A stretch of DNA of 64,000 bases from Pedosphaera sp. (GCA_022451065.1 JAKUOU010000019.1:4203-68202); one strand, 5' to 3'; shown: positions 29,649 to 64,000, numbered from the stretch's first letter. A program made the numbers and translations. Notes: a model not told the origin generated them from the sequence alone.

Positions 29649-29651
29649 GCC

Positions 29652-29897: not shown

Positions 29898-29923
29898 GCT
29901 TATGCTTCATCCGTTGATTTAAA

Positions 29924-34140: not shown

Positions 34141-34159
34141 CGGTACCCTGCCAGCGCCG

Positions 34160-35491: not shown

Positions 35492-35616
35492 ATTTGCCGA
35501 TTGATGGCGCCGCGCTGCAGAGAATTGGCTCATCAACTTCTCGTGCTTTTTTGTGGTTCACGGCATTTACCTGGGTGCACTTAATCGCTATTTTGGCGGT
35601 GTTCCGCTTTTTTTGG

Positions 35617-41284: not shown

Positions 41285-41761
41285 CTAATTGCTGGCCTTG
41301 TTGTCGCAGGCGCCGCTTTTTTTCAACACGTCGCAGGTGGCTGAGAGTTGCAGTTTCTGCGACTTCACGGTGAATCCTAAATTTTGGCCAATCTCGTTCT
41401 CGATCGACTCGATTTGATCGCTGTCAAACTCCACGATTTTTTCGCAGTCCTCACAAATGAGATGATTATGGTTCGGGTGGTCGGAGTAGTTGGGGTCGTA
41501 GAATTTGTACGGCTTCCCGAAGTCCATCTCGTGCACGAGATCGCTCTCGGTGAGGAGTGGCAATGTGCGATAGACCGTTGCGCGGGAGACGGAGCGGTCT
41601 TTCTCCCGTGCCCACTCAAGTAGTTGTTCGGCGGTGAAATGTTCCTCAGTGGAGAACACCGTGTCGATTATGACACGCCGCTGATCGGTGATACGAAGAT
41701 TCTTTTTCTCGAGGAAATCCATAAATTTCCTCTTGGCCTCCTCTCTCACTAAGGTCTGCAC
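41285..41761 (-). CDS. Fur family transcriptional regulator
   Basis: LRITDQRRVIIDTVF...SRATVYRTL DNA-binding part. HNHLICEDCEKIVEF plus C-terminal CDVLKKSGAC (Cys4 structural Zn pattern). Start is GTG 41761 or ATG 41722. Confidence 0.85.
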   Translation of the reverse strand: MQTLVREEAKRKFMDFLEKKNLRITDQRRVIIDTVFSTEEHFTAEQLLEWAREKDRSVSRATVYRTLPLLTESDLVHEMDFGKPYKFYDPNYSDHPNHNHLICEDCEKIVEFDSDQIESIENEIGQNLGFTVKSQKLQLSATCDVLKKSGACDNKASN

Positions 41762-41872: not shown

Positions 41873-41898
41873 GCTTGGTCAAGCGCTTGGCCAAGCGC
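41873..41898. repeat. tandem 1.5-2 copies of the iterated palindrome
   Basis: GCTTGGTCAAGC (one mismatch) overlaps GCGCTTGGCCAAGCGC (41883-41898). It ends 6 nt upstream of the GT2 ATG. Confidence 0.9.
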
Positions 41899-45283: not shown

Positions 45284-47752
45284 ATGAACGGTTTGATTGG
45301 GAATGTTTTTACCTGCGCCGGATTGCTGTTAGTTTCGTTTGATTCGGTGCAAGCCGGGTTGACGACGGAACAGAAAGCCAAGCTGCCATCGCCGGCCAAG
45401 CACGCGATCAGTTTCGCCAGGGACATTTCGCCGTTGCTGGAAAAGAGCTGTACCAAGTGTCATGGCAAAGGCAAAGCCAAGGGCGGTTTCAGCATCGAAA
45501 CACGTGAAAAGTTGCTTCTCGGCGGTGACTCGGGCGGGGCGGTGGTTATCGGCAAGAGCGTCGACAGCTACTTGGTCGAGTTGATTTCCGGCATCGACCC
45601 TGAAAATGTCATGCCGCAAAAGGGCTCAAGGTTGACCCCGGAACAGGTCGGCTTGATTCGTGCCTGGATTGACCAGGGATTGCAGTGGGAAGAGGGGGCG
45701 ACATTTGCCAAGGCGCCGGTGCTGAACCTTAGCCCGCGCCGGCCGGAGTTGCCCGGTGACGAGGGCGGCCATCCGGTCGATCGCATTTTGGCGTCGTACT
45801 TCGCCAGGTACGGAGTGAAGACCAGCAGGGTGGTTTCGGATCGGCTTTTTGCCCGACGCGTGTATCTCGACACGATTGGCCTGTTGCCGCCAGTGAAGGA
45901 ACTGGACGAGTTTGTTGCCAGCACAGCGAAGGGCAAACGCCGCAAGTTGGTTCGCCGGTTGCTTGCCGATCACAAGCCGTACGCCGAGCATTGGTTGGCG
46001 TTTTGGAACGACATTCTGCGCAACGACTATGCTGGCACCGGCTTCATAGACGGTGGCCGCAAGCAGATCACCGGCTGGCTTTATGGTTCGCTCTATCAAA
46101 ACAAACCGTACGACCAATTTGTGTACGAACTGATCAACCCAAAGGAGCACTCGCGGGGCTTCACGAAGGGTATCGTTTGGCGCGGCGTGGTGAACGCCAG
46201 TCAAAAACCCCCGATGCAAGCGGCGCAACACATCTCGCAGATTTTCATGGGCGTGAACCTCAAGTGTGCCTCATGCCACGACAGTTTCATCAACGATTGG
46301 TCGCTTGCCGATGCCTACGCGTTGGCCAGTGTCTACGCTGACAAGCCATTGGAGATGGTTCAGTGCGACAAGCCGACGGGCGAGATTTCCGACGTTCGGT
46401 TCATCCATCCGGAGCTGGGCGCGATTGACCCGAAGGCGGATCGAGCCAAACGCATCGAGCAGTTGGCCAAGGCGGTGACGAGTCCGAGGAATGGCCGCCT
46501 CAGCCGCACAATTGTCAACCGGCTTTGGGCGCGGTTCCTCGGCCGTGGCTTGGTCGAGCCGGTTGATGAAATGGAGAACAAGTCGTGGCACACCGACCTG
46601 CTCGACCTGCTGGCAAGCGATCTCATCGACAACGGATACAATCTCAAGTTCACCATGGAGCAAATCATGACGTCGCAGGCGTACCAGTTGCCGGCGGTGA
46701 ATGGTGCCGAGCAGGAGGAAAAGAATTACGTTTTTCGGGGGCCACTGGTTCGCCGTATGAGCGCCGAACAGTTTGTCGATGCCATCGCGACAATCACCGG
46801 CAACTGGAAGCCGTCGCCGGCGAAGAAGATCAAGTTTGATGGGGCGAATCTCGCCGGCGTGAGGACGGGATTCGACCGGAATGATCTGCCACGGGGCAGA
46901 TGGATCTGGAGTTCGGCCGAGGCGGCCAAGGGCGTTGAGCCGGGCACGTCCTATTTTCGCAAACGCTTCGAATTGCCGCATAAGCCCAAGACGGCGAATG
47001 TCATCGCCGTGGCGGACAATTCATTCGTTCTGCTTGTGAACCATCGTACCGGTATAGCCGGCAAAAACTGGGAGGAACCGAAGTTCCACAACTTGGCCAG
47101 TCGATTCAAGAAAGGCAAAAATCTTGTCACGGTTTTAGCCACGAACGAAGGGAGCGGAAAAAACCCCGCGGGACTTTGGCTGGGCATTCGGTTTCAGTTT
47201 GCCGATGGCTCGACGATGGACATGGTGTCCGACCAGTCATGGAAAGTCAGTACCAAGAATTCTGATGGTTGGAACACGTCGGAGTTCGACGACACCACAT
47301 GGCGGGAGGCGTCGGAACTAGGAGGGATGGACATGGCTCCGTGGGGCTTGGCCAAGCGGATGAAAATGAGCGGCTCAGAACTGGCGTTTGGCGGGCGGTT
47401 TCGCGAGTCACTGCAAAACAAGACGGCGCTGACCACGGCGCTTGGCCGGCCGAACCGAGAGCAGGTGACCACCAAGCGCCCATCTGTCGCCACCACGCTG
47501 CAGGCGCTCGCGTTGACTAACGGCGAGGTCCTTTCGACGCTCATCAAGGACGGAGCCACCGCCCTGGCCGGCGAGGGCGGAGAGCAGCAGGGTTTGGCTA
47601 AGCGGGTGTTTCTGGCGGCGCTTGGCCGGTCGCCGAATCAAGCAGAATCGACAATGTTGGCAGAGCTGAGCAGTGGAGATAACGGGGCCGAGTCGGTCGA
47701 GGACGTGCTTTGGGCAGTGACGATGCTGCCGGAGTTTCAACTCATTTACTAA
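45284..47752 (+). CDS. PSCyt1/DUF1549/DUF1553 domain protein with an inserted beta-sandwich-like module
   Basis: CTKCHGKGKAKGGFSIE, CASCHDSFINDWS, C-terminal DUF1553-type end LPEFQLIY. No adjacent DUF1501 gene. Confidence 0.8.
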   Translation: MNGLIGNVFTCAGLLLVSFDSVQAGLTTEQKAKLPSPAKHAISFARDISPLLEKSCTKCHGKGKAKGGFSIETREKLLLGGDSGGAVVIGKSVDSYLVELISGIDPENVMPQKGSRLTPEQVGLIRAWIDQGLQWEEGATFAKAPVLNLSPRRPELPGDEGGHPVDRILASYFARYGVKTSRVVSDRLFARRVYLDTIGLLPPVKELDEFVASTAKGKRRKLVRRLLADHKPYAEHWLAFWNDILRNDYAGTGFIDGGRKQITGWLYGSLYQNKPYDQFVYELINPKEHSRGFTKGIVWRGVVNASQKPPMQAAQHISQIFMGVNLKCASCHDSFINDWSLADAYALASVYADKPLEMVQCDKPTGEISDVRFIHPELGAIDPKADRAKRIEQLAKAVTSPRNGRLSRTIVNRLWARFLGRGLVEPVDEMENKSWHTDLLDLLASDLIDNGYNLKFTMEQIMTSQAYQLPAVNGAEQEEKNYVFRGPLVRRMSAEQFVDAIATITGNWKPSPAKKIKFDGANLAGVRTGFDRNDLPRGRWIWSSAEAAKGVEPGTSYFRKRFELPHKPKTANVIAVADNSFVLLVNHRTGIAGKNWEEPKFHNLASRFKKGKNLVTVLATNEGSGKNPAGLWLGIRFQFADGSTMDMVSDQSWKVSTKNSDGWNTSEFDDTTWREASELGGMDMAPWGLAKRMKMSGSELAFGGRFRESLQNKTALTTALGRPNREQVTTKRPSVATTLQALALTNGEVLSTLIKDGATALAGEGGEQQGLAKRVFLAALGRSPNQAESTMLAELSSGDNGAESVEDVLWAVTMLPEFQLIY
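47346..47357. repeat. iterated palindrome copy, 12 bp, inside CDS
   Basis: Read as G-L-A-K-R. Confidence 0.9.
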
Positions 47753-49305: not shown

Positions 49306-50757
49306 ATGGACAAACTTTTGCTCATCGATGACGAGGATGACGTACGCTACTCGTTTAAACGTATCTTCAGCTCACCCGATCTCAACCTCGAGACCGCTGC
49401 CAGCGGCGAGGAGGGGCTGAAGGTTATACATCGTTTTCAGCCGGATCTCGTGCTGATGGACGTCCGCATGGGCGGCATCAACGGGCTCGAGACGCTGCGC
49501 CGTATCCGGCAGGATGATGCTAAGTTGCCGGTGATCATGATGACCGCCTACGGCACCACGCAGACCGCGATCGATGCGATGAAACTCGGCGCGTACGACT
49601 ATCTGCTCAAGCCGTTTGACGTGCCCAAGCTCAAGCAGATTGTCACCGATGCGCTCAAGGCGGCGCGCGACATGAGGCAGGTTGTTGCCTGCGAGCCGCT
49701 CCTCGAGACGGAGGATTACGACCTGGGCATCGTCGGCCGCAGCCAGCCGATGCAGGAGGTGTTCAAGATGATCGGCCAACTGGCTGGCTCGGATGCCACG
49801 GCGCTGGTCACCGGCGAGAGCGGCACTGGCAAGGAACTGGTCGCGCGCGCGATCTACCACAATAGCCGGCGAAACGACAAGTCATACCTTCCGATCAACT
49901 GTGCCGCGATCCCGGAGAACCTGCTCGAGAGCGAGTTGTTCGGTCATGAGAAGGGATCCTTCACCGGCGCGATCTCGCAGCGCATCGGCAAGTTCGAGCA
50001 GTGTGACAAGGGCACGCTGTTCCTCGACGAGATCGGTGACATGACGCTGTCCACGCAGGCCAAGATTTTGCGCGTGCTGCAGAGCGGCACCATCGAGCGT
50101 GTTGGTGGTAACAAGCCGATCGTGGTGGACGTGCGGATCATTGCCGCGACAAACAAGCGGCTCGAGGAGGCGGTGGCTAGCAGGGAGTTCCGCGAGGACC
50201 TCTTTTACCGGCTGAACGTCGTGCGAGTAAGTCTGCCAACGCTGCGCGAACGCCGGGAGGATATCCCGCTGCTGATTGACTATTTCCTCAAGACAATTGC
50301 CAGCGCCGAGGGGCGCAAGCCCAAGTCGATTCTCGAGGACGCGCAGGAACGGCTGATGCAACACGATTGGCCCGGCAACGTGCGCGAGTTGGAGAACGTT
50401 ATTCGCCGCACAATCGTCATGGCCAAGGGTGAGGCGATCCGTGCTGACGACCTGCCGGCGGATATGCGTTTGTTAGGGAGAGATCCGGCCGGCACAAGCC
50501 AAGCGCTTGGCCAAGTGGAGCAGCCGCTGGCCGCCGCCATTGACCTTGGCACCATCTCGGCGAAGCTGTTCCACTGGGCAAAGGAACGGCCGGATATAGC
50601 CGTGCTGCCGGCGGTGGAACGCGAGCTGATTGCCCATGCGTTGCGCGAAACCAATGGCAACCAGGTGCGGGCGGCCAAGCTACTGGGCATCACTCGTGCG
50701 ACGCTGCGCAAACGCATCGAGAAGTTCAGCATCAAGCAGGCCGTCTCAGTCGAGTAG
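49306..50757 (+). CDS. sigma-54-dependent Fis-family response regulator (NtrC-like)
   Basis: Receiver domain (DLVLMDVRMGG), AAA+ (GESGTGKE, GAFTGA-like GSFTGA, ESELFGHEKG), C-terminal HTH (NQVRAAKLLGITRATLRKRI). Confidence 0.9.
   Translation: MDKLLLIDDEDDVRYSFKRIFSSPDLNLETAASGEEGLKVIHRFQPDLVLMDVRMGGINGLETLRRIRQDDAKLPVIMMTAYGTTQTAIDAMKLGAYDYLLKPFDVPKLKQIVTDALKAARDMRQVVACEPLLETEDYDLGIVGRSQPMQEVFKMIGQLAGSDATALVTGESGTGKELVARAIYHNSRRNDKSYLPINCAAIPENLLESELFGHEKGSFTGAISQRIGKFEQCDKGTLFLDEIGDMTLSTQAKILRVLQSGTIERVGGNKPIVVDVRIIAATNKRLEEAVASREFREDLFYRLNVVRVSLPTLRERREDIPLLIDYFLKTIASAEGRKPKSILEDAQERLMQHDWPGNVRELENVIRRTIVMAKGEAIRADDLPADMRLLGRDPAGTSQALGQVEQPLAAAIDLGTISAKLFHWAKERPDIAVLPAVERELIAHALRETNGNQVRAAKLLGITRATLRKRIEKFSIKQAVSVE
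50499..50515. repeat. permuted/tandem palindrome copy inside CDS
   Basis: CCAAGCGCTTGGCCAAG read as S-Q-A-L-G-Q-V in the sigma-54 regulator gene. Confidence 0.85.
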
Positions 50758-51481: not shown

Positions 51482-52486
51482 ATGAACTCACGAATCCTAT
51501 TGTCAGTGGTGGCAGGGCTTTTGATGCTTGGCCTAACGCACAGCTCCGCCCAGGAAGAGCCTTTCACCGTCAAGAAAAACGGCGACAACTATCGCGTCGA
51601 GATTGATGGTAAGCTGTTCACCGAATACATCCCTACTGGATACAACAAGCCGGTGCTTTACCCGGTCATCGGTCCGCACGGCGTCAGCATGACGCGCAAT
51701 TACCCGTTCAAGGAGGTCGAGGGCGAAGCCAAGGATCACGTGCATCATGCGTCGTTGTGGTTCACGCACGGCGAAGTCAATGGCATCAGCTTTTGGCACA
51801 ACGGCAAAAACACGGGAAAAATCATCCCGGCCGAGCTGGTCCGTGCCGAGGGCGGTCGCCGCGGCTCGATCGTCTCGAAAAACAACTGGGTTGGTCCGGA
51901 CGACAAGGTTATCTGCACCGACCGGACATCGATCAGTTTCTATAAAGCGCTCGGTGGCACATTCGTGTCGTACAGCGTGACCGTCTTTGCATCGGAAGGG
52001 GACGTGACCTTTGGCGACACCAAGGAGGGCAGCATGGGTATCCGCACGCATCCGAACCTGCGCCTGACCAACGGCAAGGGTGTCACCACTGCCAACGGCC
52101 ACGCGCTCAACAGTGCCGGGCACAAGGACAAGGAACTCTGGGGCAAGCGCGCCAAGTGGGTCGATTACTGGGGCGAGATCGACAACCACACGGTCGGCGT
52201 TGCCATATTCGATCACCCGGACAATCTGCGCCACCCGACCTGGTGGCACGCCCGGGACTACGGTCTGGTTGCCGCCAACCCGTTCGGCATTCACAACTTC
52301 GAGGGCAAGAAAAAGGGCGTGGGCGACTTCAAGCTGAAGAAGGGTGAACAGCAGCAGTTCCTCTACGGCATCCTTTTCCACGAGGGCGACGCCCAGGCCG
52401 CTGACATTGCCGGCTCATACGCCAAATGGGTCGATGCCGTTGCCGCCTACAAGGTCAGGGCAGCGGAGCAAACTGGGAACAACTAG
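51482..52486 (+). CDS. PmoA-family / DUF6807-like secreted protein
   Basis: Signal peptide. KPVLYPVIGPHGVSMTRNYP and DHVHHASLWFTHGEVNG blocks as I recall them for this family. Confidence 0.6.
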   Translation: MNSRILLSVVAGLLMLGLTHSSAQEEPFTVKKNGDNYRVEIDGKLFTEYIPTGYNKPVLYPVIGPHGVSMTRNYPFKEVEGEAKDHVHHASLWFTHGEVNGISFWHNGKNTGKIIPAELVRAEGGRRGSIVSKNNWVGPDDKVICTDRTSISFYKALGGTFVSYSVTVFASEGDVTFGDTKEGSMGIRTHPNLRLTNGKGVTTANGHALNSAGHKDKELWGKRAKWVDYWGEIDNHTVGVAIFDHPDNLRHPTWWHARDYGLVAANPFGIHNFEGKKKGVGDFKLKKGEQQQFLYGILFHEGDAQAADIAGSYAKWVDAVAAYKVRAAEQTGNN

Positions 52487-52497
52487 CTTGGCCAAGC
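52486..52497. repeat. iterated palindrome copy, 12 bp, between convergent stop codons
   Basis: Starts on the G of the TAG at 52484-52486. Followed by gcgggc and TCA (52504-52506, cysE stop). The right flank GCGCGGG is the same as in the copy at 20260. Confidence 0.9.
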
Positions 52498-52503
52498 GCG
52501 GGC

Positions 52504-53403
52504 TCAGATCTCGTAGTTGTCGGCCTTTTTCATCACCTTGACGCTGACGTCCTCTGCGATGACGAGGGAGTTGGCCGGTACGCTGTGGATGAGGAACACG
52601 TTGCCACCCACCGTGCTATTTGCGCCAATGATAGTTTTGCCGCCGAGGATGGTTGCGCCCGGATAAATTGTGACATTGTTCTCGATGGTGGGATGCCTCT
52701 TGATCCCGCGCAACTCATCAACGCGTGAGGTGGACTTCGCGCCGAGTGTGACGCCGTGATAAATCTTCACGTGATCCCCGATACGGGTCGTCTCGCCCAC
52801 GACAGTACCGGTTCCGTGGTCGATAAAAAAATGCGAGCCGATCTCCGCGCCGGGGTGGAGGTCAATGCCGGTGCGGCTGTGCGCCCACTCGCTCATGATC
52901 CGCGGGATTAGCGCTACGCCACGCCGGTATAGCTGACGCGCCATTCGCTGAACGGCGATCGTCTCGATGAACGGATAGGCTACCACGACCTCCTCGTGGC
53001 TGATGGCGGCGGGATCCCCTGCGTAGGCCGCTTCGACATCGGTCCTGAGCAGTTCGCGGATGGAGGGGAAGCTGCCAAGGAACTCAGCGGTGAGTTCGCG
53101 GGCCAACTGCCTCGGATTGGCCGCATTATTGCCGGGTGGCTTGTACTCGATGCTCTTGGTGATCTCGTCCTCGAGCCGGCCACTAACGCTGTCCATCAGC
53201 ATTGAAATCTCGACCTTCAGCTCGGCGGTCTGAACCGGTTTTTCATCAAAAAAACCAGGCAGCAGTAGCCGCAGCAGGTCGGTGGTGATCGACGCGATGG
53301 CAAACTTGGACGGCAGGTTGCCCCCATCTAAATGATTGATGCCGCCCACCTTTGCGTAGGAGGCGATCAGCTCATTGGTCAACTGGGTGATGCTTTCGCT
53401 CAC
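52504..53403 (-). CDS. cysE: serine O-acetyltransferase (long form)
   Basis: Hexapeptide-repeat region DLHPGAEIGSHFFIDHGTGTVVGETTRIGDHVKIYHGVTLG. Confidence 0.85.
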   Translation of the reverse strand: MSESITQLTNELIASYAKVGGINHLDGGNLPSKFAIASITTDLLRLLLPGFFDEKPVQTAELKVEISMLMDSVSGRLEDEITKSIEYKPPGNNAANPRQLARELTAEFLGSFPSIRELLRTDVEAAYAGDPAAISHEEVVVAYPFIETIAVQRMARQLYRRGVALIPRIMSEWAHSRTGIDLHPGAEIGSHFFIDHGTGTVVGETTRIGDHVKIYHGVTLGAKSTSRVDELRGIKRHPTIENNVTIYPGATILGGKTIIGANSTVGGNVFLIHSVPANSLVIAEDVSVKVMKKADNYEI

Positions 53404-53451: not shown

Positions 53452-54024
53452 TCAAGGCGCGACCCACGCGACGCGCCAGTCGCTGCCTGTCCACGTGAAT
53501 TGCGCGCGTTGATGACGTTCGTTGTCGAGTTGTAGCCAGTCGATAAACGTGATTTCGGCGATGAGCACGGTGAAATTTGCATAGGCAGCAGTGTAGGCAC
53601 CGGCTTGTGCTTGACCAAGCGAAGGGTCGTCGATCGGCAAGCCGGGAGCGTTTGGCGTGGCGTAATTGCGCTTGTTGGCCTCAGGCACAGCGGCCCAGGC
53701 GGTGCGGGTGACTTCATCGTCGTGATGCACGGTAACCCTCCCGTTGGCGCGAACCTGCACCTTGGTTTGCGGATCAAAAAAATGCCAGGCCACCCGTGGG
53801 TCTTTGCGGAAACCAGGCACCTTGGTCGAACGAACATCAGTCTGGGCGATGAGTTGGCGAGTTACCGGATCGACTGAGCGAAGCACCATTGTACGTACTT
53901 CGGGGCCATTGAGCCCGTGGGCGCCCAGTACCGGCAACCTCCACGGGTGATCCGCTTGGTCGGTCGCCTTGGCCAAGCCGCTCCAGGTTTGTTCGAGGAT
54001 GGTTTGAAGTTTGTCGCTGCTCAT
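53452..54024 (-). CDS. pyridoxamine 5'-phosphate oxidase family (FMN-binding split barrel) protein
   Basis: 190 aa. PEVRTMVLRSVD and RVAWHFFDPQTKVQVRANG resemble the PNPOx-like fold. Moderate confidence. Confidence 0.6.
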   Translation of the reverse strand: MSSDKLQTILEQTWSGLAKATDQADHPWRLPVLGAHGLNGPEVRTMVLRSVDPVTRQLIAQTDVRSTKVPGFRKDPRVAWHFFDPQTKVQVRANGRVTVHHDDEVTRTAWAAVPEANKRNYATPNAPGLPIDDPSLGQAQAGAYTAAYANFTVLIAEITFIDWLQLDNERHQRAQFTWTGSDWRVAWVAP

Positions 54025-54128
54025 CCGTTGGCCAATTCAACGGTGAAACCCAGCCGCTCGAAAGCCAAAAGTGCACCGCGACCGAACTTGGTTTCGCTTG
54101 AAGCGTGTCGTAGGTTGTCGCCGCGCTG

Positions 54129-54860
54129 ATGTCCAAGTCGAGTCGAGAACATGTGTACGGATTGAACCCCGCCTTCGAGGTGTTACGGGCGGGGAGGCGC
54201 CGTGTGTACTCGGCTCACCTGAACGAAGGCATGCGTGACAACACGCGCGTAAAAAAACTGGTCGGCGGCCTAGAGTGCAATAAAGTCGAAATCGACTGGA
54301 CGGACAAGGGTCGCCTGATGCAGCTCTCCGGCAGCCGCGATCACCAGGGTGTCGTGCTCAAGACATCACTCTACCCATATGCCGAATTTGATGAGTTGCT
54401 CGGCGTGCCGCGCATGCTGCTGCTCGACAACGTGGAGGATCCACACAACGTCGGCGCGATTCTCCGCAGCGCCGAGGTGTTCGGTTTCAGCTCCGTTTGC
54501 CTGCCGAAGAAGGGCGTGCCGGAGGTTTACCCGTCGGTGGTCAAGGTCAGCGCCGGCGCAACTGAGTTCATGAAAATCTGTCGCAGCGATTCAGCCAACG
54601 TCTACGCCCGCAAGGCGGCTGAGTCCGGTTACCGCATTGTCGCGTTGGACAGGGCCGGTAAAACGTCGCTGGAGGAAGTTGCCGCAGTCAGACCGGATAA
54701 ACTGCTACTCGTGATCGGCGGCGAGGATCGTTCGGTCGGCCAATTCATCCTCAACATGGCCGACGACGTGGTGGGCATCACCCAGCGCGGCCGTGTTAAT
54801 TCGCTCAATGCCTCTGTTGCCGCCGGCATTGCCATGTTCTCCCTTGGCCAAGCCGAGTAG
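54129..54860 (+). CDS. rlmB: 23S rRNA (guanosine-2'-O)-methyltransferase, SpoU/TrmH family
   Basis: LLLDNVEDPHNVGAILRSAEVFG, LVIGGEDRSVG, SLNASVAAGIAMF. Confidence 0.8.
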   Translation: MSKSSREHVYGLNPAFEVLRAGRRRVYSAHLNEGMRDNTRVKKLVGGLECNKVEIDWTDKGRLMQLSGSRDHQGVVLKTSLYPYAEFDELLGVPRMLLLDNVEDPHNVGAILRSAEVFGFSSVCLPKKGVPEVYPSVVKVSAGATEFMKICRSDSANVYARKAAESGYRIVALDRAGKTSLEEVAAVRPDKLLLVIGGEDRSVGQFILNMADDVVGITQRGRVNSLNASVAAGIAMFSLGQAE

Positions 54861-56267: not shown

Positions 56268-58349
56268 ATGGTCGTACCTGGCCTAGCAAAAGGCAAACCG
56301 ACGACCGGCTTGGCCCAGCACTGGCTTGACGGTACAACTGGCGCAGTGTCCGAGGTAGAGAAAGATCCACTTGGCCAACCGGTGGCGGCGTTGCCCGGCA
56401 TCGGCGGCGAGCGTGCGGCGCGCTTAGCCAAGCTGGGCATCCGCACCGTCGGAGACCTGTTGTGGCACGGGCCAAGGCGTTACGAGGATCGCAATCGACC
56501 GAACGAGGCTAAGGGTTTGTCCAAGGGCGACACCGGCACGGTCGCCGGGCCGATTGTCGTGGCCGGCGTCAAGCGGATGCGACACGGCAAGAGTTTGTTC
56601 GAGTTGATCCTCGACGACGGCACGGCACGGCTGCATTGCCGCTGGTGGAACATGCCTTACATGGGGCGCTACTACAAAACCGGCGACTTCGTCCACGTGC
56701 ACGGCAAGCTCACTTCGGATAAACCGCGTACGATGAATCACCCCGAGGCAGAGGTCGCCGAGGAAGGAGAGGAGTTCATCCACCTCAAGCGCGTTGTGCC
56801 GGTGTACCGGCTGACCGACGGCATCAAGCAACGCTGGCTGCGTACCGTCATGTGGCGGGCGGTGGATCAGTTCGCTGACTTGGAGCCGGACACCAATCTC
56901 GGATTACTGGACGCTGACGACAGCCATTGGCTGCCGTTGGCGGAGGCGTTTCGTGCCGTCCACTTCCCCGACGATCTAGGGCAAACGGAGATGGCTCGCG
57001 AGCGTCTGGCGCTGGAGGAGTTCATCCGGTTTCAGCGGCAAATCCGCGAGAGGCGAAAGATATTTCAGGCCAAGGTCAAGGCGTTGCCGTGCGTCGGAGA
57101 CAACCGGCTGATGACGCCGTTTTTGAATGCGCTCGGCTTTACATTTACCGGTGCGCAGCAGCGTGCATGGGACGAAATTGCCTACGGCATGGCCGGCTCG
57201 TACCCGATGCGTCGACTGCTGCAGGGCGACGTTGGTTCCGGCAAAACCGCCGTCGCCGCGTGCGCTGCATTGCGGGCGATCGAGAGCGGCTTCAGCGTGG
57301 TGATCCTGGCGCCGACTGAGATTTTGGCGGAGCAGCACCATCGCGTTTTCAGCCATTGGTTTTCCCCTCTAGGTATCCCGGTGCACCTGCATACCGGCAG
57401 CAAAAAAACGATGCACATCAACGATCCGGATCAAGCCGAACTCGGCATGGGGAGTAACTCGTTGCCGCCGCTTGTCATTGGCACGCACGCGCTTGTCGAG
57501 GAGAAGTTCGCGCTCGAGAACATCGGCCTTGCGATCATCGACGAGCAACACAAGTTCGGCGTCGAGCAACGAAAAAAGCTTGTCCGAAAGGGGCGCTATC
57601 CACACGTGCTCGTGATGACTGCTACGCCGATCCCACGCACGCTTGGCCTGACCGTTTACGGCGACCTCGACATCTCGCTGATCGACGAGTTACCGCCTGG
57701 ACGCGGCCAGGTTCGCACGCACATCCGCGACCCTGAGAGCCTGCCAAAGGTGTGGGAGTTCGTTCGCGGAAAACTCGCGGAGGGACGGCAGGCATACGTC
57801 GTGTATCCGCGAGTCGACGATCAGGGTAGTGGTAGCCTCAAGGCGGTCAATCAGGAACTCGAGAACGTGCGCCAGCAACTCGAACCTCACGCCGTCGGAC
57901 TGCTTCATGGACGGCTCAATTCGGCTGAAAAGGAAGAGGTCATAGATAGTTTTCTCGCCGGCGAAATTAAGACACTGCTGGCGACGAGTGTGATCGAGGT
58001 CGGCATCGATATCCCCAACGCGACGATCATGCTCATCGAGAACGCTGACCGGTTCGGCCTGGCGCAGTTGCACCAGTTGCGCGGGCGGATTGGTCGGGGC
58101 GCACACGAGTCGCACTGCATTCTCGTCGCCGGCGAAGTGACCGACGAGGGCCAACGGCGGCTTGATGTCATGGAGAAGGGCGGCGACGGCTTTGCGCTGG
58201 CCGAGGAGGATTTGCGGCAGCGTGGCCCCGGCGAACTGCTCGGCCAGGCGCAAAGCGGCCTACCGGATTTCAATTTTGGCGACCTGATCAAGGACTGGCG
58301 ACTGATCCAAAAAGCGCGCGATCTTGTTGCCCTCGAGCCCGCCGGTTAG
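56268..58349 (+). CDS. recG: ATP-dependent DNA helicase RecG
   Basis: ORF 56079..58349 trimmed to ATG 56268. Wedge/OB domain, LLQGDVGSGKT, IIDEQHKFG, MTATPIPRTL, QLHQLRGRIGRG. Confidence 0.9.
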   Translation: MVVPGLAKGKPTTGLAQHWLDGTTGAVSEVEKDPLGQPVAALPGIGGERAARLAKLGIRTVGDLLWHGPRRYEDRNRPNEAKGLSKGDTGTVAGPIVVAGVKRMRHGKSLFELILDDGTARLHCRWWNMPYMGRYYKTGDFVHVHGKLTSDKPRTMNHPEAEVAEEGEEFIHLKRVVPVYRLTDGIKQRWLRTVMWRAVDQFADLEPDTNLGLLDADDSHWLPLAEAFRAVHFPDDLGQTEMARERLALEEFIRFQRQIRERRKIFQAKVKALPCVGDNRLMTPFLNALGFTFTGAQQRAWDEIAYGMAGSYPMRRLLQGDVGSGKTAVAACAALRAIESGFSVVILAPTEILAEQHHRVFSHWFSPLGIPVHLHTGSKKTMHINDPDQAELGMGSNSLPPLVIGTHALVEEKFALENIGLAIIDEQHKFGVEQRKKLVRKGRYPHVLVMTATPIPRTLGLTVYGDLDISLIDELPPGRGQVRTHIRDPESLPKVWEFVRGKLAEGRQAYVVYPRVDDQGSGSLKAVNQELENVRQQLEPHAVGLLHGRLNSAEKEEVIDSFLAGEIKTLLATSVIEVGIDIPNATIMLIENADRFGLAQLHQLRGRIGRGAHESHCILVAGEVTDEGQRRLDVMEKGGDGFALAEEDLRQRGPGELLGQAQSGLPDFNFGDLIKDWRLIQKARDLVALEPAG

Positions 58350-59128
58350 CTGCCGAAAAGGCGGACGAAATTTTCTTCCACGCGCCTGGCCAAGTCGTCG
58401 GGCGCTTGGCCAAGCGCCTCGGCGGCGGCCTCGTTCACGGCGGCGATGTTGGCTGGGTGGTTGACCGCTTGGCCAAGCGGATGAGTGACGCGATCTTCAG
58501 GCAGTCCTTGGTCGGGGGCGTCGGTCTCGATGAGTAGTCGGTCGGTCGGCACTCGGCGGAAGGTGTCGCGCTGGCGCGTTTTGCGTTCATGCGCGAAGGC
58601 ACCGGGAAAGCTGAAGTAGGCGCCGATTGAGGCCAACGGCTCGATCATCTCCGCCGGGCCACCGTAGCTGTGAAGTAGAAAACCGCGCCTAGGCAATGGG
58701 CTGTTGCGGAGGAGATCGTGGAGGCGCCCCCAAGTCTTGAGACAATGAAGGCTTGCGGGGAGATTACGCTCGGCAGCCAGGCTGAGTTGGGCGGTGAAAA
58801 CTTTCTCCTGTTCGTCGTAACTCAGGCCGGGCTTCCAGCGGTCGAGGCCGATTTCACCGACAACACTTGGGCAAGCGTCGAGATGTTGCTCGAGTTTGGC
58901 CAGCCAACTTGGCGTGCGCTCGTGGACGAACCAAGGGTGCAGGCCGAAGCTGGGCATCACACAGTCGTGGCGACTGGCCAGGTCGGCGACCGTGGGCCAG
59001 TCGCTCTCGCGGGTGCCGTTGACGACCATTTTGGACAGGCCAACAGCGGTACAATCGGAGATCAGTTCGTCCTGTTGATTGCCGAATCGGGCATCCTGCA
59101 AATGGTTGTGCGCATCGAACAGCCGCAT
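58346..59128 (-). CDS. tatD: TatD family metal-dependent hydrolase
   Basis: MRLFDAHNHL..., GEIGLD, LHSY, ETDAPD. Confidence 0.85.
   Translation of the reverse strand: MRLFDAHNHLQDARFGNQQDELISDCTAVGLSKMVVNGTRESDWPTVADLASRHDCVMPSFGLHPWFVHERTPSWLAKLEQHLDACPSVVGEIGLDRWKPGLSYDEQEKVFTAQLSLAAERNLPASLHCLKTWGRLHDLLRNSPLPRRGFLLHSYGGPAEMIEPLASIGAYFSFPGAFAHERKTRQRDTFRRVPTDRLLIETDAPDQGLPEDRVTHPLGQAVNHPANIAAVNEAAAEALGQAPDDLARRVEENFVRLFGS
58401..58418. repeat. iterated palindrome copy, 18 bp, inside CDS
   Basis: GGCGCTTGGCCAAGCGCC, the longest perfect copy. Lies in the 3' end of tatD (A-L-G-Q-A on the minus strand). Confidence 0.9.
58464..58479. repeat. iterated palindrome copy, 16 bp, inside CDS
   Basis: CCGCTTGGCCAAGCGG, 46 bp from the previous copy. 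A third degenerate copy (CCTGGCCAAGTC) lies at about 58385-58396. Confidence 0.9.
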
Positions 59129-59140: not shown

Positions 59141-60238
59141 CTATTCATCGAAGCGAAGCCGGAAGAATTGCGCTTTGCCTAGTTTAGCTTCGATGGGGAA
59201 TTCGAGTATTGCGGTTTCACCCGGGAAACGACTGGCATGACTCCAGAAGAGCAGGTCGTGAGTCGTCTCGACGATGGCCGTCGAGCCGGCTGGCAATTCG
59301 GTGTTTAGCGTGAACCGGTTTTCGTCTGCAATAATGTTGAGCCGGACGGCGGCTTGTTTGCGCAATTGCCGGTACTTGCCGTCAGGGAGTCGGGTGGGGA
59401 CGTGGTACTTTGGATCGGTGAGGATTTTGACGATGGACTTGTCCTTGGCTCGCAGTTTTTTAGGCGTATTGAGTTTCCACTCATGCTCAATGTTTTCGCC
59501 CCGACCCTTAAAATCCTGTCCGTTGAGCAGGCTGGTGAGAGCCCAGTAAACATACTCGGTGATCTGGCAGCCGTAGTCGCAGGTGCGGTCGTCGTAGGAG
59601 TACCAGGCACTGGCGGGATAGCGGCGCGGCACGGTACGGAAGTAGCCGCCACGCGCAATGTCCATCGCGTTGGCAAGCTCAGAGCCGCGGCGTTCGCCGA
59701 ATACTTTTGGGTAAACACCAGCGTAACCGACCGATGTGATAATGTGCAAAATCTCCTCGATGGAGGCATCAAACTCGCGCGACTCGGGGTTGTGCGGCCC
59801 GGCGTTGGGCAGCGTCTCGGTGGCGTACAGGCCCTGCAGCGCATAGTCGTCGAACATCTCACCATAACGATCGTGGAGCCGTTCGAGTTCTCGCTCATCG
59901 TAGCCCATGACGATCGCCGACCGCTCGTTCCAGAGTTTGTCGTTTACTTTTGGGTTGTCCGGTTTGCCATCGCGATCGTTGTCGAGGAAATCTGCGGTTA
60001 TGTCAGCGGCGTGCAGCAGTTTGGCATCCGGCACGCGGTCGGTCGCTTGGATGTACAGTCCGAACACCTGGACATGCTTCGGCAACGCCGACTTGAGCCC
60101 GGGCAGACGGTTGTTTTTGCCGCTGTGGATCTTGAAATCCGGCTCGGCAGCTTGGCCAACCGGCGTCATGAGAAAATAAAATAGGGCCGCGCAGATGGAC
60201 GCGGTGACCCTATTGAAATGTCTTATTGTTGCGCCCAT
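59141..60238 (-). CDS. hypothetical secreted protein
   Basis: 365 aa with a signal peptide (ICAALFYFLMTPVGQAAEP). No motif recognised. Confidence 0.5.
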   Translation of the reverse strand: MGATIRHFNRVTASICAALFYFLMTPVGQAAEPDFKIHSGKNNRLPGLKSALPKHVQVFGLYIQATDRVPDAKLLHAADITADFLDNDRDGKPDNPKVNDKLWNERSAIVMGYDERELERLHDRYGEMFDDYALQGLYATETLPNAGPHNPESREFDASIEEILHIITSVGYAGVYPKVFGERRGSELANAMDIARGGYFRTVPRRYPASAWYSYDDRTCDYGCQITEYVYWALTSLLNGQDFKGRGENIEHEWKLNTPKKLRAKDKSIVKILTDPKYHVPTRLPDGKYRQLRKQAAVRLNIIADENRFTLNTELPAGSTAIVETTHDLLFWSHASRFPGETAILEFPIEAKLGKAQFFRLRFDE

Positions 60239-62210: not shown

Positions 62211-63995
62211 TTATTTTTCTACGCCCAGAATTTTTTGCAGTTCGGCGTTCTTGGTGTGACCAGCTGCGAGCGCCTTTTCGTAGTGGAACTTGGCCAGGGC
62301 GGTGAAGGGCGGTTTTTGAGTGGCGTACACAACGGCGAGGTTGTGGTGGGCCTCGGCGTGGCCCGGCTTGATCTGGAGCGCCTTACGTAGTGCTGTCTCG
62401 GCGGCTTTGCGCTGGCCAAGGTTGTTGAGCGCCGAGCCAAGGAAGTGCTGTGCGTTGGCATCCTCCGGATTCAGTTTGACCGCCTTGGCCAGGTAATCGC
62501 GTGCCTCCTCATATTTTTTTTGACGGTAACGAAGTGTGCCAAGCAGTGACAGAGAGAAGGTGTCGTTTTCGTTGTTCTTCAGCGCCCGCTCCAGGCTGGT
62601 CTCGGCGCCGTCATAGTTGCCCTGTTCCATTTGTGCCATGGCGAGGCTACCAAGCGTCAGTGGGTTTTCCTCGTCCAGTTTGAGGACGTGCAGAAACTTC
62701 TGTTCCGCCTCACCGTACTTGGCCTCGACGAGGGCTGCCTGGCCCGCCTTGAAATCAGCCGCGCCGCCCTCCGGCAGGGTAGCGACCTTGGCCTGAAGTG
62801 TGTTGGCAGGTTGATCTCCTGTTTTTGGTTCGGCGAACAGTTTCTTCTCCTCGTCGGTATAGGGGATTTTCTCAGCTTCAAGAATCTCGAGTCGCGATCT
62901 CAGGGTGTCGAGCCGGTTCTGCAGTTCAGCCACTTGGGCCTGCTCGGCTCGATCCTTTTTTCGCCAGTTCAAGATGCCGGAAAGGGCCTTCCTCTTGCTG
63001 GCGGGGTTGGTATTTATTCGCTCGGCCTTGGCAAGGCGCTTCTCAAGCGAGTTGATATAGTCGCGCATTTCTTTTTCGCGGGATCCTTTCTGGAGGGCTT
63101 TGAGCTGATCCTCAAGCGAGTCGTTGCTGCTTTGTGAGGAAGCCAGGTTACTTGAGGTTTCCTTTAACTGGCTGTTACTTTTGGCCAGTTGTTTCTCGAG
63201 GGAACCGACCTTGGTCTCGAGATTCTTTTCGCGGTTGCCTTTTTTGAATGATTTGAGCTCCTCCTCGAGAGAGGCTTTATCGTTCTTGAGCGCGGCAATA
63301 TTGCCCGAAACTTTCTCCAACTCGCCCTGGTTGTCCGCCATTTTCTTTTGGAGCGCCTCAACTTCAGTTTGAAGTTCTTTTTCGCGGTTCCCCTTTCTGA
63401 ACGACTTGAGTTCCGACTCAAGGCTTTTGTTCGTCGTTTTGAGTGATGCCAGTTCCTTTTCGGTTGTCTCGAGGGACTCCTTGCTGTCCGCCAGTTGTTT
63501 CTCGAGGCGTTTGGCCTGGCGGTTGTTTGCCTCTGACTTTGCGCTCTTCACCTCCTGCTGCGATTGCTCGAGTGCTTCTCTGGTTTTTTTTGCGTCGGCT
63601 TGGGCCTTGGCCAAGTTGGCCTGTGCCTTTTCGGTTTCTGCTGTTGCCTTGGCCAAGCCGGCGTTGGCGTCCTTGAACTGTGCGGTGGCCTTGTCGATGG
63701 CGCCCTTGAGGTTGGTGTTTTCCTGGCGAAGGCCGGAGAGGTCGCTTTCCAGCTTGGCCAGTTGCTTGGTCTCCTCAGGCGACGGCACGGCAGAAAGGGC
63801 TTCCTTGAGTTTGGCATCCTTGATGACGATCGCGTTTTCGAGCGACTCAACCTTTCGCTTGAGAATGGCGATCTCGCGGCGTGCGGCGGCGGGGTCAAGG
63901 GTAGCCGGTTTGTCCAAGGTTGCCTTTACATCCTCCGTAGCTTTGGCTCCGATTTCCTTGAGCTTCTGGTCCAGGTACTTGATGCGAAAACTCAC
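62211..63995 (-). CDS. long coiled-coil protein with C-terminal TPR repeats
   Basis: 594-aa ORF. GTG at 63993-63995 lies 5 nt from the window edge, so the true N-terminus may be outside the window. Residues 1-380 are Lys/Glu/Ala-rich heptad-like. Residues 415-590 are TPR-like (AEAHHNLAVVYATQ). Confidence 0.6.
   Translation of the reverse strand: MSFRIKYLDQKLKEIGAKATEDVKATLDKPATLDPAAARREIAILKRKVESLENAIVIKDAKLKEALSAVPSPEETKQLAKLESDLSGLRQENTNLKGAIDKATAQFKDANAGLAKATAETEKAQANLAKAQADAKKTREALEQSQQEVKSAKSEANNRQAKRLEKQLADSKESLETTEKELASLKTTNKSLESELKSFRKGNREKELQTEVEALQKKMADNQGELEKVSGNIAALKNDKASLEEELKSFKKGNREKNLETKVGSLEKQLAKSNSQLKETSSNLASSQSSNDSLEDQLKALQKGSREKEMRDYINSLEKRLAKAERINTNPASKRKALSGILNWRKKDRAEQAQVAELQNRLDTLRSRLEILEAEKIPYTDEEKKLFAEPKTGDQPANTLQAKVATLPEGGAADFKAGQAALVEAKYGEAEQKFLHVLKLDEENPLTLGSLAMAQMEQGNYDGAETSLERALKNNENDTFSLSLLGTLRYRQKKYEEARDYLAKAVKLNPEDANAQHFLGSALNNLGQRKAAETALRKALQIKPGHAEAHHNLAVVYATQKPPFTALAKFHYEKALAAGHTKNAELQKILGVEK
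63021..63425 (-). repeat. three tandem 51-aa (153-bp) coding repeats inside the coiled-coil gene
   Basis: SLESELKSFRKGNREKELQTEVEALQKK..., SLEEELKSFKKGNREKNLETKVGSLEKQ... and SLEDQLKALQKGSREKEMRDYINSLEKR... start at residues 191, 242 and 293. Confidence 0.6.
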
Positions 63996-64000
63996 AACTG

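Follow-up and report, generated by a model that had tools for sequence, protein, structure and literature searches.

The 64-kb window (the whole stretch of DNA analysed, 64,000 nucleotides) comes from an uncultured marine Verrucomicrobiota clade related to Limisphaerales. Its close relatives are all Verrucomicrobiota/Limisphaerales MAGs, and its Pfam-annotated genes are a typical PVC-superphylum set. The segment shown holds tatD (CDS 58346-59128, minus strand), at whose 3′-end the initial annotation had seen three copies of one palindrome; two of these are exact, while the third, at 58386-58393, is the one-off variant CTGGCCAA and is read L-A-R.

The exact word, TTGGCCAA, is its own reverse complement and occurs 52 times in the window, where dinucleotide-preserving shuffles give 1.55, a 34-fold excess. 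The longer forms CTTGGCCAAG and GCTTGGCCAAGC have 26 copies (against 0.09 in the same kind of shuffle) and 13 (against 0.00). With its symmetric flanks the octamer is the core of a graded palindrome of about 14 bp, cgCTTGGCCAAGcg. The flank preferences around the core are C 78%, G 59% and C 57%, with none farther out; sequence information fades out about 3-4 nt away from the core on both sides and is about zero beyond position -4. The real unit is closer to a 10-14-mer than to a 12-mer. A maximal-order Markov expectation for TTGGCCAA was discarded as uninformative because the sub-words are also enriched. The core contains both GGCC and TGGCCA, which are common type II recognition sequences. 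The copies are given below with coordinates, gene and strand, and reading; gene models are ORF-based, and where no form is named the copy is the octamer TTGGCCAA.

1507-1514, minus-strand CDS 802-1779, A-L-G-Q-P-T
2613-2622, CTTGGCCAAG, non-coding, upstream of where the DUF1592 gene truly starts, with a TTG that gives a spurious ORF start
3243-3256, 14-bp palindrome CGCTTGGCCAAGCG, plus-strand PSD/DUF1592 CDS 2647-4554, W-P frame, V-A-W-P-S-G
3584-3595, GCTTGGCCAAGC, same PSD/DUF1592 CDS, L-A-K frame, R-L-A-K-P-G
3944-3951, same PSD/DUF1592 CDS, x-G-Q frame, L-F-G-Q-A-S
7136-7143, minus-strand GlnD gene 6847-9609, T-L-A-K-P-S
9689-9702, 14-bp palindrome, non-coding, 20 nt upstream of the ATG of an ECF sigma gene
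10446-10453, plus-strand CDS 10380-10871, E-L-A-K-L-E
10606-10619, 14-bp palindrome, same CDS 10380-10871, A-L-G-Q-A-W
13032-13039, plus-strand CDS 12684-13412, T-L-A-N-G-G
14725-14732, minus-strand FtsK gene 13428-16088, G-L-A-N-N-I
16637-16644, plus-strand CDS 16151-16984, Q-L-A-K-V-S
17457-17464, plus-strand CDS 16994-17815, V-L-G-Q-W-E
18567-18574, plus-strand CDS 18531-20258, L-L-A-K-V-N
20260-20273, 14-bp palindrome, non-coding, TAG-ccgcTTGGCCAAgcgcggg-TCA between convergent stops; weak RNA hairpin, -5.9 kcal/mol
20536-20543, minus-strand RecJ gene 20278-21996, P-I-G-Q-G-N
23123-23138, 16-bp palindrome GCGCTTGGCCAAGCGC, non-coding, between TerC and SecDF genes; hairpin of -14.2 kcal/mol without T tract
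23938-23945, minus-strand SecDF gene 23218-25710, A-I-G-Q-D-S
27772-27779, plus-strand CDS 26199-29648, A-I-G-Q-A-R
28794-28801, one-off variant CTGGCCAA, the variant initially placed at about 28795
31559-31566, plus-strand IspD gene 31370-32050, D-L-A-K-R-I
31890-31901, 12-bp palindrome CCTTGGCCAAGG, same IspD gene, A-L-A-K-V-R
31953-31960, same IspD gene, A-L-G-Q-S-V
33713-33722, CTTGGCCAAG, minus-strand CDS 32051-34549, D-L-A-K-T-F
34127-34140, 14-bp palindrome, same CDS 32051-34549, A-L-G-Q-A-E
35045-35052, plus-strand CDS 34508-35491, D-L-A-K-Q-W
35410-35419, CTTGGCCAAG, same CDS 34508-35491, G-L-A-K-C-Q
35656-35665, CTTGGCCAAG, plus-strand CDS 35494-38562, A-L-G-Q-A-H
37004-37011, same CDS 35494-38562, E-I-G-Q-A-A
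38045-38052, same CDS 35494-38562, P-V-G-Q-L-L
38118-38127, CTTGGCCAAG, same CDS 35494-38562, R-L-A-K-V-V
38980-38987, plus-strand helicase gene 38764-41277, A-L-A-N-D-K
39638-39649, 12-bp palindrome, same helicase gene, P-L-A-K-A-G
40379-40390, 12-bp palindrome, same helicase gene, D-L-A-K-W-V
40842-40851, 10-bp palindrome GTTGGCCAAC, same helicase gene, E-L-A-N-L-D
41384-41391, polymorphic, minus-strand Fur gene 41285-41722, E-I-G-Q-N-L; strains L201, L202 and L204 have T>C
41883-41898, 16-bp palindrome, non-coding, ending 5 nt upstream of the GT2 start as called in L201
42949-42956, plus-strand GT2 gene 41904-43085, D-F-G-Q-L-E
44079-44092, 14-bp palindrome, plus-strand CDS 43688-45235, A-L-G-Q-A-V
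45131-45138, same CDS 43688-45235, P-L-A-K-Q-L
46463-46470, plus-strand PSCyt/PSD gene 45284-47752, Q-L-A-K-A-V
47346-47357, GCTTGGCCAAGC, same PSCyt/PSD gene, G-L-A-K-R-M
50506-50515, CTTGGCCAAG, plus-strand NtrC-like gene 49306-50757, A-L-G-Q-V-E; intact in 3 of 6 aligned genomes including the window
52486-52497, GCTTGGCCAAGC, non-coding, TAG-cTTGGCCAAgcgcgggc-TCA between convergent stops; intact in 3 of 8 aligned genomes including the window
53968-53977, CTTGGCCAAG, minus-strand CDS 53452-54024, G-L-A-K-A-T
54028-54035, non-coding, 4 nt upstream of the start of minus-strand 53452-54024; intact in 5 of 5 aligned genomes including the window
54843-54852, CTTGGCCAAG, plus-strand SpoU gene 54204-54860, S-L-G-Q-A-E-stop
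56371-56378, plus-strand RecG gene 56268-58349, P-L-G-Q-P-V; intact in 8 of 12 aligned genomes including the window
58386-58393, one-off variant CTGGCCAA, the third tatD copy, minus-strand CDS 58346-59128, D-L-A-R-R in the window
58402-58417, 16-bp palindrome GCGCTTGGCCAAGCGC, same tatD CDS, A-L-G-Q-A-P
58465-58480, 16-bp palindrome CCGCTTGGCCAAGCGG, same tatD CDS, P-L-G-Q-A-V
60152-60159, polymorphic, minus-strand CDS 59141-60238, P-V-G-Q-A-A; GTGGCCAA in L201-L204, a loss
63606-63615, CTTGGCCAAG, minus-strand TPR gene 62211-63998, N-L-A-K-A-Q
63648-63657, CTTGGCCAAG, same TPR gene, G-L-A-K-A-T

All copies named in the initial annotation exist, within 1-3 nt of where it put them, including A-W-P-S and R-L-A-K-P in the PSD/DUF1592 gene and G-L-A-K-R at 47346. 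Of the six copies for which it gave A-L-G-Q-A, those at 10606, 44079, 35656 and, on the minus strand, 58402-58417 have this reading; the copy at 50506 reads A-L-G-Q-V-E and the minus-strand copy at 58465-58480 P-L-G-Q-A-V. It had assigned two copies in two frames to a gene at 2614-4554; the gene has three in-frame copies, one per frame (3246, 3586 and 3944), and the copy at 2614 lies upstream of its real start. We point out that the TTG within the word supplies spurious upstream start codons to ORF callers. Pfam upholds the TatD, PSD/PSCyt and NtrC-like identities, while the anti-sigma factor rests on one DUF4880 match just under threshold. The supposed membrane glycosyltransferase at 43688-45235 has no Pfam match, the GT2 gene being its neighbour at 41904-43085.

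Of the 52 copies, 45 (87%) lie in-frame inside genes and 7 are non-coding. All three frames are used, as had been claimed, but very unevenly: 23 copies are read L-A-K/N, 21 x-G-Q and a single one W-P. Per kilobase, non-coding DNA (7 copies in 2.6 kb) is 3.6-fold richer than coding DNA, and this higher density, together with the rarity of the W-P frame, shows that coding constraint still limits the word. Clustering, regular spacing and a preferred position within genes were each considered and rejected, as spacing is near random (CV 0.82, against 0.97 when copies are placed at random, P = 0.10) and copies are spread evenly along the length of genes (KS P = 0.52).

The word is confined to one lineage with a sharp on/off boundary. 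Every one of the 15 loci with a TatD at least 70% identical to that of the window has it as its top palindromic octamer, at 6-20 copies per 10 kb, whereas each of the 65 next-closest Limisphaerales loci (TatD identity at most 64%) has 0-1 copies. Expressed as density this is 0.95 against 0.019 per kb, a difference of about 50-fold (49-fold), and for the 10-mer the counts are 147 and 1, an excess of about 370-fold. Scaled to a megabase, the window has 812 copies and the clade 950. When marine metagenome contigs were retrieved by paired 10-mers, 90 of 99 had at least 5.5 octamers per 10 kb.

One phage contig, with 8 copies in 13.7 kb, has the word at a host-like density and in the same two frames as the host. 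This disfavors a restriction-target reading, and we reject a restriction-modification target under avoidance, since the word is strongly enriched in the host and also present on the phage contig. A 14-mer scan of IMG/VR matched at least 120 contigs; among the matches listed each has a single chance-level copy, and only contig L149 reaches host-like density. The paired-10-mer scan of IMG/VR added at most L213 to this; in the same scan the word was locally dense on L211 and L212, over 5.4 and 3.6 kb.

With proteins and codon usage held fixed, a synonymous-codon shuffle gives 7.6 copies against 49 observed, and a separate shuffle of codon order gives 2.4, which bears out the initial view that a protein-level explanation is unlikely. 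The refuting condition that the initial annotation had set does not apply, for distant orthologues lack any similar frequency of the encoded tripeptides. Per 10,000 residues, LAK is found 23.7 times in the clade and 5.8 times in the outgroup, and LGQ 19.9 and 4.0 times, with codon usage nearly equal in the two groups. In the clade LAK is encoded by TTGGCCAAG in 69 of 159 cases, LGQ by CTTGGCCAA in 58 of 133 and WPS by TGGCCAAGC/T in 15 of 16, which is not so in the outgroup. Alignment with orthologues places the clade-specific residues where the word is completed. Comparison with 65 outgroup TatD orthologues shows an old L-G or L-A followed by a completing residue that is peculiar to the clade (Q for K/E, K for A); at the 58402 site the outgroup has L-G-E, and at the 58465 site P-L-G-K, with Q or R less frequent in the last place. 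That tatD has three copies is accounted for by its variable C-terminal region, which already offered three L-G/L-A positions. The DUF1592 protein likewise has clade-specific residues, namely the W of AWPS (3243) and the A-K of RLAKP (3584), while its F-G-Q at 3944 is conserved family-wide and differs in codon choice alone. A DNA-level bias is overriding weak protein constraint here, with 4-5 times as many LAK and LGQ and a clade-private W-P-S peptide.

It had been proposed that the word is tolerated or inserted wherever its peptide is acceptable. Insertion is not what the alignments show: TatD and DUF1592 have zero indels at motif sites, and copies arise by single-base substitution where the sequence is already 1-2 bases off, typically at Leu-Gly-x, Leu-Ala-x or x-Pro, and are lost again through ordinary transitions. 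A recent gain is seen at 58386, where a perfect TTGGCCAA (D-L-A-K-R) is present in L201-L204, strains 99.1% identical to the window, and in L002, L005, L006, L007 and L012; in the former it is a non-synonymous gain, R to K. Turnover is fast, with 39 distinct sites among 16 genomes over 15.7 kb and private sites in every genome. Sites are nevertheless retained above controls: of 98 site-by-genome comparisons 47 show an intact motif, where same-phase control octamers predict 21.3 (about 2.2-fold), and codons for the same amino acid are identical in 88% of comparisons at the motif and 69% in the flanks, both tests pooling phylogenetically non-independent comparisons. Among genomes 99% identical, 4 of about 190 SNPs fall in motif positions where about 1.5 are expected, which means that these positions change as often as, or somewhat more than, others. 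Most clade-enriched one-off variants lie a single transition away from the word, C>T at either cytosine among them. The substitution spectrum has an excess of transitions at the outer T as well as at both cytosines, with no single-cytosine hotspot, and the idea of a methylation hotspot was dropped because no position is diagnostic. That density is held near one per kilobase across the clade requires a sequence-specific bias in the fixation of variants. Of the earlier proposal of selection at the DNA level, the DNA-level force is supported, while selection, molecular drive and biased repair are indistinguishable so far.

Pfam analysis of all genes in the window revealed no DNA methyltransferase, Vsr or competence gene, and crude regex motifs gave no methyltransferase candidate in about 1.1 Mb of motif-rich DNA, a weak negative. 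An NPPY protein in L300 was set aside as a methyltransferase candidate as it lies on a motif-poor contig. A literature search combining HIP or uptake sequences with Verrucomicrobia found nothing relevant to the word, and the element is apparently undescribed so far. Searching for the bare string TTGGCCAA returned primers and similar strings, which are uninformative.

We consider it very probable that the word is a DNA-level element of the HIP or uptake-sequence type, built by substitution. The fixed symmetric sequence suggests that a DNA-binding or DNA-modifying protein of symmetric or dimeric build would recognize it. If DUS/USS and methylated HIP1 are taken as analogues, its most likely role would be that of a 'self-DNA' tag: uptake, homologous recombination or both could favor tagged DNA, possibly once the TGGCCA/GGCC core is methylated, and a tag favored in this way would spread by molecular drive. 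For class and mechanism taken together our confidence is reasonably good, weighted mainly towards the class; that the word acts as an uptake or recombination tag we put forward tentatively, as a possibility suggested by the analogy. Natural competence is, to our knowledge, not documented for these uncultured bacteria, and we know of no uptake sequence that is a palindrome. The benefit to a phage of carrying an uptake tag is also not obvious, and a cell-wide repair or conversion bias, or prophage residence, would be a simpler account of the phage contig.

Alternatively, the word could be the neutral, functionless by-product of a methyltransferase-linked ratchet or a very-short-patch-like repair bias, in which mismatch processing and an orphan methyltransferase, with TGGCCA, GGCC or the entire word as its target, make cognate sites out of near-cognate ones. 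We regard this as somewhat unlikely. The two type II recognition sequences in the core fit it, as do the one-transition variants, the motif-rich phage contig and the lack of visible protection of motif positions at 99% identity, and the ratchet that Elhai proposed for HIP1, the abundance of which tracks CGATCG methyltransferases, is a precedent (PMC4390886). However, the substitutions have no cytosine hotspot, neither a methyltransferase nor Vsr was found in the sequences searched (again a weak negative), and a single-base bias would hardly specify 10-14 symmetric positions or excesses of the size seen for the octamer and the 10-mer. Retention of sites and synonymous positions at larger divergence also argues against it, although an ongoing ratchet would mimic this.

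The retention above controls and the symmetric, graded 14-bp shape would suit the binding site of an abundant, dimeric nucleoid-associated or chromosome-organizing protein, kept by selection for chromosome structure; HIP1, with its conservation and periodicity, is again a precedent (PMC5861425), its quasi-periodic distribution being on a scale of 10-90 kb. We think this improbable given the fast turnover with private sites in every genome, the spacing in the window that is indistinguishable from random, and the lack of any known candidate protein. It is highly improbable that the word is a short palindromic REP/BIME/MITE-like insertion, or an RNA hairpin or terminator selected in the transcript. 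The long copies do form hairpins of 5-7 bp, and two copies (20260 and 52486) exactly span the gap between convergent stop codons. A hairpin or terminator role is rejected on account of the weakness of these hairpins (-6 to -14 kcal/mol, z +1.2 to -2.1) and their lack of T tracts; the 52486 copy is not kept in relatives, and a structural role alone would not fix one sequence. A MITE/REP insertion is rejected by the in-frame copies without indels relative to orthologues and by the lack of an extended flank. There is next to no chance that the word is a by-product of amino-acid composition and codon usage, with LAK, LGQ and WPS common and written in preferred codons, for although TTG, GCC, GGC, CAA and AAG are all moderately used and F-G-Q at 3944 is family-wide, this is refuted by the shuffles, by the outgroup with its same codon usage and yet far fewer words and tripeptides, by codon choice, by the higher non-coding density and by the use of all three frames. 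The word is neither a mobile element nor a by-product of protein composition.

The sharp boundary and the many MAGs mean that phylogenetic profiling could pinpoint co-occurring genes, such as a methyltransferase, a repair nuclease or uptake/pilus genes; the case is an unusually clear measure of how a DNA-level force reshapes proteins; and binning and classification of the clade and its phages can use the word as a simple marker. If it is a transformation tag, it could aid the genetic handling of a culture-resistant group. We speculate, with some doubt, that it may be the first highly iterated palindrome outside cyanobacteria, one that evolved independently and with another sequence in a clade of abundant marine bacteria and that would serve as a kin-DNA tag for transformation or recombination, possibly read through methylation and copied by at least one phage of the clade. 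If so, HIP-type words would be a general convergent device rather than a cyanobacterial oddity, and motif-rich and motif-free sister lineages would offer a clean comparison for finding the reader protein.

Several known systems resemble the word. Like Chi- and KOPS-type octamers, which are read by DNA-processing machines, it is enriched genome-wide, but those are asymmetric, strand-polarized and about 5-10 times rarer, whereas a palindrome has no polarity. With REP/BIME and MITE elements it shares being short, GC-rich, palindromic and highly repeated; REPs, however, are imperfect repeats of 20-40 nt that lie outside genes and spread by transposition, while here 87% of copies are in genes, at most 14 bp are involved and there are no indels. 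The likeness to the DUS of Neisseria and the USS of Pasteurellaceae is closer: about one copy per kb in a lineage-specific 'dialect', a strong core with graded surroundings, and enrichment in non-coding DNA, including between convergent genes. Uptake sequences, too, are built by substitution inside genes, in tolerated frames and at poorly conserved residues, and raise their encoded tripeptides about 2-fold (PMC2817400), as compared to 4-5-fold here. DUS and USS are asymmetric and often form inverted pairs that act as terminators, in contrast to the palindrome with its weak hairpins, and our word is shared with a phage.

The function of HIP1 (GCGATCGC) has been debated for about 30 years, and HIP1 has been treated as specific to cyanobacteria. 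It is conserved beyond neutral expectation, and Xu et al. proposed a role in chromosome structure (PMC5861425); methylated HIP1 raises transformation efficiency up to 100-fold (10.1101/2024.09.10.611283), and HIP1 has been proposed as an uptake sequence (10.64898/2026.06.24.733823). The present word differs in its unrelated sequence, centred on GGCC/TGGCCA instead of GATC/CGATCG derivatives, in its Verrucomicrobiota host, in being found in one sub-order-level clade and not in most of a phylum, in the cognate methyltransferase, which was not found in the window or the motif-rich DNA (weakly negative), and in its excess over shuffles, about 34-fold as against 55-228 in most HIP1-rich genomes (PMC4390886). 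In other respects the two are alike. Both have a palindromic octamer core with an optional symmetric extension, are similarly abundant (about 810-950 per Mb here, 300-2700 per Mb for HIP1; PMC4390886), occur inside and outside coding sequence and in every frame without a peptide- or RNA-level explanation, and show enriched one-off variants and between-genome retention above control words (PMC5861425). The HIP variant CAGGCCTG of Synechococcus PCC 6312 is, like our word, centred on GGCC.

We find that the palindromic octamer TTGGCCAA occurs 52 times in the window, where dinucleotide-preserving shuffles of the whole window predict 1.55 copies, and no octamer of any kind is commoner there. By the same whole-window shuffles CTTGGCCAAG is expected 0.09 times and GCTTGGCCAAGC 0.00 times, against 26 and 13 observed. 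The initial annotation had claimed that this one DNA word is translated in all three frames and had argued from this for selection at the DNA level; every copy that it named could be located, within 1–3 nt of the coordinates given, in the frames described. With gene starts adjusted by means of homologues and JGI gene calls, 45 copies are coding: 23 are read as TTG-GCC-AA (L-A-K/N), 21 as xTT-GGC-CAA (mostly L-G-Q) and one as T-TGG-CCA-A (A-W-P-S). The other seven lie in 2.6 kb of non-coding DNA (2.7 per kb, compared with 0.73 per kb within genes). The genes that carry copies are ordinary core ones (FtsK, RecJ, SecDF, GlnD, IspD, RecG, TatD, Fur and PSCyt/PSD proteins), copies are placed uniformly within them, and the spacing of copies cannot be distinguished from random (CV 0.82 vs. 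0.97, P = 0.10). The features at tatD are as follows:

58346–59128, minus strand: TatD gene (Pfam TatD_DNase, E = 2.9e-54), with 58383–58479 inside its 3′ end
58402–58417: GCGCTTGGCCAAGCGC, in the 3′ end of tatD
58465–58480: CCGCTTGGCCAAGCGG, in the 3′ end of tatD
58386–58393: CTGGCCAA, a one-off variant, in the 3′ end of tatD

The tatD ORF is convergent with that of recG (56268–58349, plus strand), and the two overlap by 4 nt (58346–58349).

That the word is a by-product of proteins and codon usage is ruled out. Shuffling synonymous codons within genes, which keeps both fixed, leaves 7.6 ± 2.5 octamers where 49 are observed and 1.5 copies of the 10-mer where 21 are observed, and shuffling codon order leaves 2.4 octamers. 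Because these two nulls differ threefold, the proteins themselves must be enriched for the encoded peptides.

A TatD-anchored scan with one genome per GTDB species places the window among marine Verrucomicrobiota MAGs (Tara Oceans, oxygen-minimum zones, deep sea and hydrothermal sites). Fifteen loci have a TatD at least 70% identical to that of the window (hereafter the clade; GC 0.51 to 0.63), and every one of them has TTGGCCAA as its commonest palindromic octamer, at 6–20 per 10 kb, whereas 65 loci of freshwater, soil and groundwater Limisphaerales with TatD at most 64% identical (the outgroup) have 0–1 copies each. Pooled octamer density is 0.95 per kb in the clade and 0.019 per kb in the outgroup, a 49-fold difference, and the 10-mer totals are 147 and 1. 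A metagenome scan for two 10-mers 25–55 nt apart matched at least 120 contigs; among the matches listed, 99 have a length of 3 kb or more, 90 of these reach an octamer density of 5.5 per 10 kb or higher (median 10), GC runs from 0.39 to 0.65 (10th–90th percentile 0.55–0.62), and most contig names indicate Tara Oceans or JGI marine samples. Two outgroup loci without TTGGCCAA, L074 (Limisphaera sp. VF-2, NZ_JBMVQY010000001.1) and L032, are rich in CGCGCGCG (37 copies in 20.8 kb of L074, 15 in L032), which may represent simple alternating CG tracts. The PSCyt/PSD genes had been labelled planctomycete in the initial annotation, but the genome is verrucomicrobial. Three PSCyt/PSD-domain sets of the PVC-superphylum type are present (2647–5905, 26199–31360 and 45284–47752), the first two paired with DUF1552 (HXXSHH) or DUF1501 genes and the third without such a partner.

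The peptides, which a by-product of protein sequence would leave equally frequent in distant taxa, are far commoner in the clade. In an ORF-based comparison of about 67,000 clade and 240,000 outgroup residues, LAK occurs 23.7 times per 10,000 aa in the clade and 5.8 times in the outgroup (O/E 4.1 and 1.4), and LGQ 19.9 and 4.0 times (O/E 6.2 and 1.2), while codon usage is almost identical. The clade is depleted in LGE, LGK, LGD and LGN. IGQ, FGQ, VGQ and LAN are scarcely increased. Both frames therefore depend on C/G at −1 and +8, a property of the DNA and not of the protein. TTGGCCAAG encodes 69 of 159 clade LAK and CTTGGCCAA 58 of 133 clade LGQ; W-P-S is encoded by TGGCCAAGC/T in 15 of 16 clade cases and 0 of 12 in the outgroup, and W-P by TGGCCAA in 22 of 58 and 5 of 260, respectively.

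Aligned with the 65 outgroup orthologues, TatD has no indels at its three motif sites. Window HPLGQAVN corresponds to outgroup HPLG(K, less often Q or R)PLN at the first, EALGQAPD to E(F/L)LGE(P/K) at the second, and DLA(R/K)RVE to SLAARVE at the third. For the DUF1592 protein, the question raised earlier of whether the tetrapeptides are lineage-specific has a divided answer: the W of A-W-P-S (outgroup x-P) and the A-K of R-L-A-K-P (outgroup L-(S/H/R)-(D/E)-P) are private to the clade, but F-G-Q at 3944 is kept throughout the family, so that there the codons alone were recruited. It follows from the TatD and DUF1592 comparisons that the word was built by point substitution on existing near-matches; where tolerated, it is built at the price of amino-acid change.

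The word is both conserved and turned over. From 48.3 to 64 kb the window shares synteny with the 15 clade loci (72–95% nucleotide identity), and 39 positions in these 15.7 kb bear the word in one or more of the 16 genomes, with 2–16 copies per genome over the part covered and private sites in all 16. Across 98 site-by-genome comparisons, window sites nevertheless remain intact in 47, where same-phase control octamers at most 450 nt away predict 21.3. Where the amino acid is shared, the codon is shared too in 88% of cases inside the motif, compared with 69% for neighboring codons; neither set of comparisons is phylogenetically independent. The window is poorer in copies than most relatives over the same columns of this region (L002–L014; e.g., 5 vs. 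10, 7 vs. 11, 9 vs. 16). Among one-off variants, those with clade enrichment mostly lie a single transition from the word (TTAGCCAA/TTGGCTAA 11-fold, TTGACCAA/TTGGTCAA 4.4-fold, CTGGCCAA/TTGGCCAG 3.8-fold); they are either relics of decay or precursors. At the four central bases, transversions show no such enrichment. Four marine metagenome contigs (L201–L204; JGI 3300009376, 3300009104, 3300009335 and 3300008738) are 99.1% identical to the window, aligned at 39306–60756, and differ at four motif positions (41384, 43369, 58386 and 60152). At 58386 they have gained a copy, CTGGCCAA having become TTGGCCAA and L-A-R having become L-A-K, the closest outgroups sharing the window state, and their tatD has three perfect copies; at 60152 there is a polarised loss. 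Since density is similar in lineages with only about 10–60% of the window's sites, we infer that independent gains must still be going on across the clade.

With 229 copies taken from the window and from 15 related genomes, and with the two half-sites of each pooled, we find preferences for C at −1 (78%), G at −2 (59%) and C at −3 (57%), and zero information past −4. Because the preferences stop at about −4, the unit is a graded palindrome of about 14 bp, cgCTTGGCCAAGcg. A MITE or REP identity is ruled out, as a longer conserved flank is absent. Two non-coding copies (20260 and 52486) exactly fill the stop-codon gaps, just 19 and 17 nt, of convergent gene pairs (20256–20280 and 52484–52506), with a common right flank GCGCGGG and the pattern TAG-motif-gcgcggg-TCA; their hairpins are weak, and the copy at 52486 is not kept in relatives. 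The motif TTG is also the first possible start of two long ORFs (2614–4554 and 9692–10330) whose true starts, judged by homologues and a downstream ATG, lie 30–33 nt downstream; the word can mislead ORF callers into extending genes upstream.

We show here that the DNA is subject to a sequence-specific force, which works through biased fixation of point substitutions and is limited by coding constraint. As to its nature, the closest analogues of the word are uptake sequences and HIP1, for which reason we place first, tentatively and by analogy, the possibility that the word could be a self-DNA tag favoring uptake or recombination. Methylated HIP1 is reported to raise transformation (10.1101/2024.09.10.611283), and HIP1 has been proposed as an uptake tag (10.64898/2026.06.24.733823). 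We next place a methyltransferase-linked repair ratchet (PMC4390886), which we consider doubtful. No DNA methyltransferase, Vsr or competence gene is found in the 64-kb window, and when about 1.1 Mb of DNA rich in the motif was crudely scanned, none of the motif-rich contigs gave a DNA methyltransferase candidate. A nucleoid-protein binding site (PMC5861425) comes last and seems unlikely. The word's RNA hairpins are weak and have no T tracts. The word is not a restriction target avoided by phages, because L149 (IMGVR_UViG_3300032087_002358, 1–13670), a contig with a large terminase subunit (3800–5416), a DnaB helicase (8213–9646) and a PDDEXK nuclease, carries eight TTGGCCAA and four CTTGGCCAAG over 13.7 kb, read as L-A-K and L-G-Q just as they are in the host clade; the contig probably comes from one of this clade's phages or prophages and shares its host's word. 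Two further contigs labelled viral, L093 (IMGVR_UViG_3300048852_000059, 744,869 bp; four octamers in 10 kb) and L211 (104,655 bp; seven TTGGCCAA and nine CTGGCCAG in 5.4 kb), may reflect local repeats or the mis-binning of host chromosome.

We found no description of this word, or of any highly iterated palindrome in Verrucomicrobia, in the searchable literature. Uptake sequences (PMC2817400) have the same coding-frame behavior and tripeptide inflation, and the word is like them in its evolution, but it is symmetric. It behaves as a highly iterated palindrome does, being a hyperabundant palindromic octamer found in all frames and conserved beyond controls, but differs from HIP1 of cyanobacteria in sequence and in host.
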